Shown: in pieces, positions 50,966-52,678 of the stretch
How the letters are laid out: the number at the start of each line of letters is the position of its first letter
Numbering within the stretch: position 1 is the stretch's first letter
Origin: Escherichia coli
Lineage (GTDB): Bacteria > Pseudomonadota > Gammaproteobacteria > Enterobacterales > Enterobacteriaceae
Assembly (NCBI RefSeq): GCF_003018115.1
Contig: NZ_CP027457.1
DNA length: 64,000 nucleotides
Strand: one strand, 5' to 3'
Notes under the pieces: generated by a model
Told to the model about the DNA's origin: nothing
What the model saw: only the letters and a program-made list of their open reading frames with translations
The model's database searches: none
Made by a program: the position numbers and the translations under genes

Positions 50966-52678
50966 TCAGTAGCCAATGGCCTCCCAGTAAAACAGCCCGT
51001 ATGTGTCCTTACTGACCGTCAGTATTACCGACTTCAGCAACGGTTCTGAAAGGGCATACCCCGTGAAATTTCCCGGTGAACCTACCGGTGATACAATGAC
51101 ATTCAGCGCCGCTGACGGAAAAGCTATCGGGAAATAGATGGTATGTGTGTCTCCTTCACTGGTTGGCCGGACAACTTGTTTCTGCCCCCATTGCCGTATT
51201 CTTCCTGTTGCCTCATCCCGCTCCCATCCGTTCACATCCAGTTTCGCTGTTGAGGGGCGTCTGATGGAAGTGTAGTTAAACCGCCACTCATAGCTCTTTA
51301 TACTGCCGCTGACCACGCAGGTGCAGTCCGTGCCATAAAACATATCCCAGGGCCGGTCATCACCTGCGCTGATCCGGACTATCGCATTCTCCCATGACCC
51401 CATCACTTCAATGGCGCATCCTCTCAGGGTGATTTTTTTCTTACCCAAATCAGTATCCACATCCGTGATCACACGGTTACTGTTGAGTAACCGCGTCGTG
51501 GTCATTACCCAGTAAGGGCCCTCAAAAGCACCCTGTGATTTCAGCCAGTTGATGAACTCTTCTGTCGTCCACTCCCCTTCTCCTGTTTTGAGATCACGCC
51601 CGTAAGCTCTTGCCACCCCAAGCTTACGAATAAACGCCTCCTTGTCGGCAATATCATCCAGGCTGGCAGACTTCCCTGCCGGACCCGCAGGACCCTGCGC
51701 TCCTCTCTCGCCTTTATCGCCCTTTGGCCCCGTCGCCCCCTGCGGCCCCACGGGCCCCGTTGCACCTCGCTCACCTTGCGGCCCCCGCTCACCGGCAGGG
51801 CCTGCCGGGCCGGGGTCACCTTTATCCCCTTTTACCCCCTGCGGTCCTCTGGGGCCGGTAGCGCCCTGTGGACCTCGTTCTCCGGGCTCGCCTTTTTTCC
51901 CCTCAGGACCGGCACCACCCGTAGGCCCCTGAGGCCCCGGTATCCCCTGCTCGCCCTTATCTCCACGGGGCCCCGCTTCTCCACGCGGCCCTGCGGGTCC
52001 CTGTGGACCAGCAGGCCCCCGGGGTCCTGCCGGCCCTCCCGGGTCACCTTTATCACCTTTCGGTCCGACAGGCCCCTGCTCACCCCGTTCACCCCGAGGC
52101 CCCTGCCCGCCGGTTTCACCACGCGGCCCGGCAACACCGGCCTCGCCCTTTGCGCCCTGAAGCCCCTGCGGCCCCCTCTCACCACGCTCACCCTTTGGCC
52201 CACGCTCGCCGGTATCGCCTTTTGGCCCGGGAATACCCTGTGGCCCCGTGTCTCCCTTATCCCCCTTCGGTCCCCGCGCATTCTCTGCCCGTTTCTTCGC
52301 TTCCTCTGCACTCGCCGCTGACGCTTCCGCACGTTTCAGGATTTCCGCGGCCACCGCTTCCAGCTCTGCAAGGGCTTTCGGGTAATACTGTGCGTCCTCC
52401 AGGTCCATCAGAAATTTATTCAGCGTTCCCGGTGCAGACTCCGCCTTCACCAGAATGTCACCCACATATGACGGCGCGTACCCTTCCGTGTTCAGCGTCA
52501 CCCGGTACAACCCCGGCTCAACATCCATACTGTAACTGCCGGTTTCCCCCGGCTGACCATACGCCACCGTGGTGACAATCACCGTCTCCGTTGTGCGGCG
52601 CGCTTTCAGCTCTATCGTGCATCCCGGTACCGGCTTACCGGCCCCGTCCTTCAGCACACCCGATATTCTGACTGCCAT
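50966..52678 (-). CDS. stf: Side tail fibre protein with collagen-like Gly-X-Y repeat region
   Basis: N-terminus [28 protein letters not shown] resembles lambda Stf; long uninterrupted GXY tract in the middle. Confidence 0.85.

Follow-up and report, generated by a model that had tools for sequence, protein, structure and literature searches.

Collagen-like proteins encoded by prophages of enterohaemorrhagic Escherichia coli (EHEC) have been known since Ghosh et al. (2012, PLoS One 7:e37872; PMC3368898) defined the types EPclA to EPclD, referred to together as EPclP, and read them as side tail fibres whose modularity is consistent with recombination between prophages. Here we report on a gene of this kind, an stf-type side tail fibre gene of 570 codons, in a 64,000-nucleotide stretch of E. 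coli DNA (RefSeq assembly GCF_003018115.1, contig NZ_CP027457.1; "the window" below means this whole stretch). Its product carries a collagen-type Gly-X-Y tract, which had been noticed in an earlier note made from the sequence alone; the tract is real, and the interpretation placed on it there is supported. We consider it very probable that a long-tailed, lambda-like prophage has its side tail fibre encoded here, with a collagen shaft and a tract through which distal cassettes are swapped.

In the published description, EPclP combine a PfN domain, an optional PCoil, one or more Col domains and various C-termini (PMC3368898). The last ~30 residues of PfN are predicted to form a coiled coil, the Col domains vary in length by multiples of three residues, and they bear a single conserved interruption, G-X-P-G-G-P-X-G. 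Their composition is characteristic, with Pro or Asp/Glu at position X, Lys/Arg, Ala, Gln or Thr at position Y, and no Cys, Phe, His, Trp or Tyr. Recombinant EPclA is a dumbbell-shaped trimer with a collagen signature in circular dichroism (CD) and a melting temperature of 42 °C; within the family, the trimer and the triple-helix CD signature were shown by experiment for EPclA and EPclB only (PMC3368898).

For the side tail fibre of Ur-lambda, cryo-electron microscopy showed the N-terminal collar (gpStfN, residues 1-91) contacting gpV and gpM; a flexible linker connects it to the shaft, a trimeric coiled coil (residues 102-393; PMC12617516). Twelve copies of gpStf form four trimeric fibres that project from the tip. 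Laboratory lambda is without side fibres owing to a frameshift, and those of Ur-lambda raise the adsorption rate (PMC12617516). Phage host range is set by tail fibres, and in Shiga toxin-producing E. coli (STEC) such prophages mobilise Shiga-toxin and other virulence genes.

Collagen-type tract and end domains of the fibre protein

The gene occupies 50966..52678 on the minus strand, as given in the list of open reading frames (ORFs), with its ATG at 52678 and a GGAGGA just upstream; the parts of the gene described below lie on the same strand. Its product is 100% identical to WP_062893928.1, named "prophage tail fiber N-terminal domain-containing protein" in RefSeq, and the gene falls in "tail fiber protein" families of PHROGs. 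Translation and a regular-expression count place the Gly-X-Y run at residues 136-337 (51668..52273), where 67 triplets extend over 202 residues. The earlier note had set its limits at 51650-52280, which is essentially right, and the 37-residue peptide that it quoted is the start of the tract. It had also called the run uninterrupted: the 67 triplets are there, and one extra residue divides them. This residue belongs to the sequence GDPGGPAG (residues 211-218; 52025..52048), which has the form of the EPclP interruption (PMC3368898) and makes a one-residue register break between a first collagen segment of 27 triplets (residues 136-216; 52031..52273) and a second of 40 (residues 218-337; 51668..52027).

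Among the checks that the earlier note had proposed were a Pfam collagen-repeat scan, a count of triplets and a comparison of tract length across related prophages. PF01391 (Collagen) scores 103.4 bits on the 570-residue protein against a cut-off of 27.2, in 5 stretches that fall in both segments, and the 67 triplets found here compare with 57-76 among full-length relatives. At a glycine frequency of 0.08, the chance of 67 in-register glycines is ~1e-73, and no Gly-X-Y run of more than 7 triplets occurs in any other frame or place of the 64-kb window. Position X is taken by Pro in 43% and by Asp/Glu in 34% of triplets, and position Y by Lys/Arg (40%), Gln (19%), Ala (15%), Thr (10%) and Pro (9%). 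The tract has no Cys, Phe, His, Trp or Tyr and contains 19 K/R-G-D/E motifs.

The N-terminus had been described as lambda-Stf-like, and this description holds. PF08400 (PfN) spans residues 1-134 (2.4e-40; 138.1 bits against a cut-off of 26.6), and within it residues 1-91 (52406..52678) match residues 1-91 of the 94-residue chain Ta, "Tail fiber protein", of PDB 9e7m, and likewise 9mgh, in a phmmer search (E 1.3e-29). We refer to this part as the collar domain, homologous to lambda gpStfN; docking on the tail through gpV and gpM is predicted for it by analogy. The C-terminal part of PF08400 (residues 92-135; 52274..52405) comprises a linker and a short helical segment rich in Ala, Glu and Lys, without a long PCoil, so that a helical stretch of ~35 residues separates the collar from the start of the collagen at residue 136. 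In lambda the coiled coil takes up residues 102-393; collagen has here replaced that shaft.

Distal to the tract lie two domains. The first, a knob of the Mu S / P2 H / P1 S type (residues ~343-477; 51248..51652), matches the Mu tail fibre structure PDB 8ju3 in sequence (phmmer E 1.4e-14) and in fold (Foldseek E 9.6e-12), and in tblastn searches it matches the P2 H, Mu S', P7 S and SSU5 fibres, with 33-37% identity to P2 H and Mu S'. The second is a C-terminal "foot" (residues ~474-570; 50969..51259) of the gp53-like_C family, with a lectin-type beta-sandwich fold as in the fibre tips of R-pyocins. PF21882 (Gp53-like_C) scores 44.3 bits on it against a cut-off of 24.9, and phmmer matches it to the R1/R2 pyocin fibre tips 6cxb, 6cl5 and 6ct8 at E 1e-8 to 1e-6 (6cxb at 1.3e-8, with 34% identity). 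An AlphaFold model of the C-terminal part, built on an alignment of 28 sequences from an exhaustive HMMER search (a word-indexed protein search with the C-terminal module gave just 7 clusters), reached a mean pLDDT of 89.4. With this model Foldseek returned the pyocin fibres at E 1.5e-9 to 1.2e-6 and AP22 gp53 (4mtm) at E 1.6e-4; the 6cxb alignment has TMt 0.66 and a root-mean-square deviation of 2.7 Å over 104 columns. A Pfam scan of the 570-residue protein found no PF06820 (PfC), PF03406 (Pf2) or other distal domain of lambda type.

The gene sits in a prophage tail-fibre locus in which J, hok, the stf-type gene, a 69-aa gene, a DUF4376 gene and dinI are followed by chromosomal yecD. With J on one side, Tfa-like genes on the other and yecD adjoining the prophage, it therefore holds the stf position of a lambda-like prophage; the order J, hok, stf, Tfa-like agrees with the lambda-Stf-like N-terminus.

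Length variants and mosaic junctions

We surveyed 5426 complete E. coli genomes, 164 of which gave some match and 41 the full gene. Full-length copies fall into classes of 1623, 1659, 1704, 1713 and 1794 nt, the 1713-nt class being represented by 21 copies, and the in-frame length differences are all multiples of 9 nt. Five in-frame orthologue sequences, one per length class and including that of the window, were translated; all keep the frame and have 57, 61, 66, 67 or 76 triplets between identical end domains, 98-100% conserved in sequence, and the break motif is always kept. It is also found in three further relatives (L008, L009 and L010). The length events comprise a 135-nt tandem duplication (15 triplets), a 45-nt deletion between microhomologies of the CAGGG type and a 9-nt insertion.

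Some copies have lost the frame, a pseudogene of 1723 nt among them, and in two relatives the frameshift lies inside the tract. In L007 (NZ_CP073589.1), a pseudogene, the collagen tract carries a 9-nt insertion plus an extra G, and in the plasmid-borne pseudogene L013 (NZ_CP027369.1) the frame switches within the Gly-X-Y region.

Pairwise blastn comparisons with relatives L003-L013 placed every mosaic junction in the zone 51699..52155 (minus strand), at window positions 52155, 51949, 51874, 51776/51771, 51737 and 51699. In gene coordinates these are nt 524, 730, 805, 903-908, 942 and 980, all within the 606-nt tract. L010, L011 and phage 1720a-02 share the N-terminus and proximal collagen and have different distal parts. 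In a 933W-type Stx1a prophage and a 110-kb phage-plasmid the N-termini are others, and everything from the distal collagen through the C-terminal module to the two genes downstream is ~98% identical. The shared cassette extends over window ~50046-51949 in the Stx1a prophage and begins at 51776 in the phage-plasmid. The cassette is thus present at ~98% in three backbones: the lambda-like long-tailed prophage, the 933W-type short-tailed Stx1a prophage and the ~110-kb phage-plasmid. Relatives L002 and L011 have two Col domains, the first of which closes with a G-E-P-G-G-P-like stretch that leads directly into a Pf2-like segment. No donor was found for the central collagen allele (window 51849-52179), which is confined to this gene and present in 22 of the 5426 complete genomes.

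Perfect tandem DNA repeats were considered as a basis for slippage and rejected, since Tandem Repeats Finder and a repeat finder gave degenerate copies of 61-91% identity.

These patterns leave room for a role of the tract beyond that of a spacer. As a tentative proposal, the collagen repeats may be the substrate for crossovers that transfer a portable host-range cassette. The unit so exchanged would be the ~1.9 kb made up of distal collagen, knob, foot and the two Tfa-like genes, whose left junction always falls inside Gly-X-Y repeats. It is conceivable, if doubtful, that the repeats, and possibly the G-X-P-G-G-P-X-G seam, are maintained in part because any in-register crossover gives a functional fibre. 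If this were true, receptor specificity could pass between morphologically unrelated Stx and non-Stx phages.

The proposed fibre and competing explanations

By analogy with experiments on EPclA and with the solved trimers of the Mu and pyocin fibres, three chains would form one fibre. The collars (residues 1-91) would attach to the tail tube and tip in the way seen for Ur-lambda, and the short helical segment would lead into a collagen triple helix of 67 triplets, a stiff spacer ~58 nm long (202 residues x 0.286-0.288 nm per residue) in place of lambda's coiled coil. Lengths computed in the same way range from ~49 to ~66 nm for the observed alleles, and the 96-triplet fibre of the 933W-type Stx1a prophage would measure ~83 nm. 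The GDPGGPAG break probably introduces a local kink or marks the seam between modules. At the distal end, the Mu-S-like knob would carry the R-pyocin/gp53-type lectin-fold foot, which may make the first, reversible contact with the cell surface; the receptor, to judge from related tips, is probably a carbohydrate or lipopolysaccharide (LPS) structure. The two Tfa-like proteins encoded downstream may aid folding of the tip. The triplet code would allow whole triplets to be gained or lost while function is kept, and low-complexity homology would supply crossover points at which distal cassettes are swapped between unrelated phages. We infer assembly into virions from related fibres, such as that of phage 1720a-02.

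Several points weigh against this account, some touching the fibre and others its recombination. The AlphaFold model covers a single chain, and of that just the C-terminal 234 residues; the triple helix lies outside it. The full C-terminal module is absent from the isolated phages of the phage collection, where the best match has 43% identity over 80%, and it is for this reason that the case for virion assembly rests on related fibres. The window stops within the prophage. The longest exact internal DNA repeat in the tract is 14 nt, the tract being cryptically repetitive, and as long perfect repeats are lacking, the argument for recombination rests on comparative mosaicism. Finally, junctions between N-terminal and C-terminal modules must fall between the two, which inflates any apparent "hotspot". 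Yet the junctions are spread through the tract and do not lie at its edges, and the claim that the tract is recombination-prone is thus supported despite these last two caveats, by junctions that all lie inside it as well as by length differences of whole triplets.

One may ask whether the gene looks intact and yet is a non-functional relic from a cryptic prophage, with length variation as neutral decay. Frameshifted copies do exist elsewhere, broken in the collagen tract (L007 and L013), the closest RefSeq genome has J annotated with a frameshift, and the part of the prophage in view is incomplete. In the window, however, J (53163-56900, minus strand) is one open ORF of 1245 aa, I is intact, and stf and the Tfa-like genes are open too. 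The five translated orthologue sequences, that of the window included, stay in frame across five length classes, of which the 1713-nt class by itself numbers 21 copies; their ends are conserved as described above, and the same cassette is retained in three phage backbones. Open frames, conserved ends and a cassette kept on three backbones point to selection rather than decay, and we regard the relic explanation as unlikely.

The Gly-X-Y tract might alternatively be a flexible, disordered, low-complexity linker that forms no triple helix. Bacteria are without prolyl hydroxylase (PMC3368898), and the register break could destabilise a helix. Against this, the glycine periodicity is strict in every variant and length changes come in whole triplets only, and a linker would have no need for glycine at every third position. 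K/R-G-D/E motifs, of which the tract has 19, are expected from work on collagen peptides to stabilise the triple helix. The composition of the tract is also that of EPclA, whose Col domain is a triple helix by CD, with a transition at 42 °C (PMC3368898). A disordered linker is therefore improbable, and we favour the stiff collagen shaft.

A third explanation would make the protein a lysogenic-conversion factor rather than a part of the virion: a collagen-like adhesin on the bacterial surface, of the Scl type, with the mammalian host as its target. Pathogens do have collagen-like surface proteins that bind host matrix and cells, and the prophages concerned are mostly in STEC strains; the N-terminus, however, is the tail-docking collar of lambda Stf, the C-terminus consists of phage and tailocin fibre domains, and the gene lies within the late tail operon together with chaperone genes. 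A Pfam scan gave fibre domains only, with none for secretion or anchoring (no dedicated signal-peptide prediction was made). We attach very little weight to this explanation and retain that of a side tail fibre.

Five overlapping ORFs of 92-190 aa appear in alternative frames across the tract, within 51541..52575 (51541..51819 and 51832..52332 on the minus strand; 51642..51932, 51776..52321 and 52003..52575 on the plus strand), and the earlier note had dismissed them as spurious. The tract has a GC content of 71% against 52% for the window, and its five off-frames contain 1, 16, 0, 2 and 2 stops per 202 codons; for the C-terminal part the figure is 8-15 per 233 codons. The five ORFs exist because the tract is nearly stop-free in four of its off-frames. 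That one or more of them is a real overlapping gene can be set aside as next to impossible, since none of the five has a Pfam match, what they encode is a Pro/Arg/Gly-rich mirror reading of GGN-CCN codons, and the triplet indels keep the Gly-X-Y frame only. For annotation, long off-frame ORFs over such tracts are to be ignored, and frameshift "pseudogenes" cluster there.

The comparisons made here show that shaft length shifts by whole triplets and that one receptor-binding cassette is common to long-tailed, short-tailed and plasmid-borne phages via crossovers in collagen repeats. Such knowledge is of use in host-range prediction and in fibre engineering.

The tail-fibre locus and its relation to known fibres

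The closest RefSeq record, E. coli O178:H19 2012C-4431, has an stf-type gene 100% identical to that of the window; the genes there follow one another as tape measure, M, L, K, I, J, Hok/Gef, stf-type gene, ~70-aa gene, DUF4376 gene, ykgJ fragment, dinI, and chromosomal yecD and aspS. Two genes downstream of stf in the window resemble tail fibre assembly genes. The 69-aa gene (50747..50956, minus strand) is like the N-terminal part of a tail fibre assembly protein (phrog_19350 at 6.8e-47; phrog_188, "tail fiber assembly protein", at 1.6e-15). The 224-aa DUF4376 protein (50073..50747, minus strand; PF14301 at 8e-18, phrog_11571 at 7e-147) has a Tfa-like N-terminus, residues 1-99 matching phrog_136, "tail fiber assembly protein", and from these matches it is probably a fibre chaperone or tip accessory. 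The chaperone position (50073-50956, minus strand) is thus filled by two genes; relatives L010 and L011 have the DUF4376 gene alone.

Upstream, a Hok/Gef toxin gene of 46 aa (52824-52964, minus strand; PF01848 at 2.4e-11) lies between J and stf, in the place of lambda's lom. It is kept in all related prophages examined, and no Sok-type RNA was found at Rfam's gathering score. The J start is probably a GTG that precedes a stretch of 16 residues. J, annotated as frameshifted in the closest RefSeq genome (L001), lies in a region where the window is 97.6-99.3% identical to that genome. Terminator-shaped hairpins with T-runs occur on the tail-gene strand just upstream of the stf start (52694-52727, minus strand) and of the J start (56900-56923, minus strand). 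Late transcription would need to read through both, which fits transcripts under Q antitermination.

Between I and J lies a non-coding gap of 860 nt (window ~56868-57760, plus strand) that holds four tandem units of 217-232 nt, each ending in a terminator-shaped hairpin and T-run on the strand antisense to the tail genes, with 3' ends at about 57087, 57316, 57540 and 57760. PasB, an Hfq-dependent small RNA (sRNA) of enteropathogenic E. coli (EPEC) E2348/69, lies in the same gap and is likewise antisense to the tail genes (PMC8550237, table S6). Its sequence (NC_011601 1466261-1466343) can be aligned with the last ~83 nt, at the 3' end, of every one of the four units, which we identify, from this alignment, as putative PasB-like sRNA genes. 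The units are unannotated in RefSeq and have no Rfam match at E ≤ 1. Anti-sRNAs of the AgvB/AsxR type were considered and rejected, given this lack of an Rfam match and the location of AgvB/AsxR at the PR' moron site. Most long-tailed Stx phages have one PasB-like unit; the four-unit array is found in 66 of the 5426 complete E. coli genomes. Three further RNA features of the window are chromosomal and lie outside the prophage: a cspA-type thermoregulator in a 5' untranslated region (4795-5255, minus strand), the SraC/RyeA and SdsR/RyeB antisense sRNA pair (20743-20887, both strands) and naRNA4 (42013-42088, minus strand).

The comparison with known fibres follows the modules of the protein. 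With lambda Stf (Ur-lambda, PDB 9e7m/9mgh, PMC12617516) it shares the collar of residues 1-91, the position after J and the Tfa-like genes that come next, and the lambdoid and Stx-phage tail fibres that it matches in the phage collection resemble it over about the first 100-154 residues only. Beyond the collar the two part company: lambda Stf continues with its coiled coil (102-393), Pf2 repeats, a hinge and a T4 gp37-like, OmpC-binding distal part, whereas the window protein has collagen, knob and foot. Between J and stf, lambda has lom where the window prophage has hok/gef.

The distal modules lead to other particles. The ~135-aa knob is shared with the Mu S/S' (8ju3), P2 H and P1/P7 S fibres, which belong to contractile-tailed phages, lack collagen and have other N-termini and tips. 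The C-terminal ~95 residues are shared in sequence and fold with R-type pyocin fibres (6cl5, 6cl6, 6cxb, 6ct8) and with gp53 of the Acinetobacter phage AP22 (4mtm), though the pyocins come from another organism and are another type of particle. The lectin-fold domain of R-pyocin fibres is described as binding core LPS (PMC6363177). The 933W-type Stx1a prophage of strain 2013C-4282 has the distal collagen, the C-terminal module and the downstream genes in common with the window; its fibre, with 96 triplets and the same break motif, differs in having another N-terminal attachment domain, 98% identical to that of phage 933W, together with a PCoil, and it belongs to a short-tailed virion. Z1483 of 933W itself is of the EPclB type, the canonical EPclB having the order Col-Pf2-Col-PfC.

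The closest relation is to the EPclP themselves, and the earlier statement that prophage collagen-like fibres are known in E. coli agrees with the description by Ghosh et al. 2012 (PMC3368898). The window protein has PfN (PF08400), a PF01391 Col domain, the same preferences at X and Y, the single break motif, Col lengths that vary in steps of three residues and a place in a prophage tail-fibre locus, and its closest types are EPclC (P-EibA ORF-401) and EPclD. EPclA and EPclB have a PCoil of ~109-116 aa between PfN and Col (88-116 aa across types A, B and D), whereas in the window protein PF08400 gives way at once to collagen, from residue 136 on, without a long PCoil; they end in the PfC (PF06820) trimerisation domain, and here PF21882 stands in its place. 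P-EibA ORF-401, the EPclC prototype, is 89% identical to the window protein over its N-terminal 154 aa, and neither has a PCoil. It has two Col domains parted by Pf2, in contrast to the single 202-aa Col without Pf2 in the window protein, and its C-terminus is unrelated to the C-terminal 233 aa found here (E 24). The principle of modular, recombining, collagen-containing prophage fibres has thus been in print since 2012, and identical proteins are in RefSeq. The window protein is a member of this described kind, with a tip that, as its domain matches indicate, joins a Mu-S-type knob to a gp53-like foot, a combination unlisted in PMC3368898.

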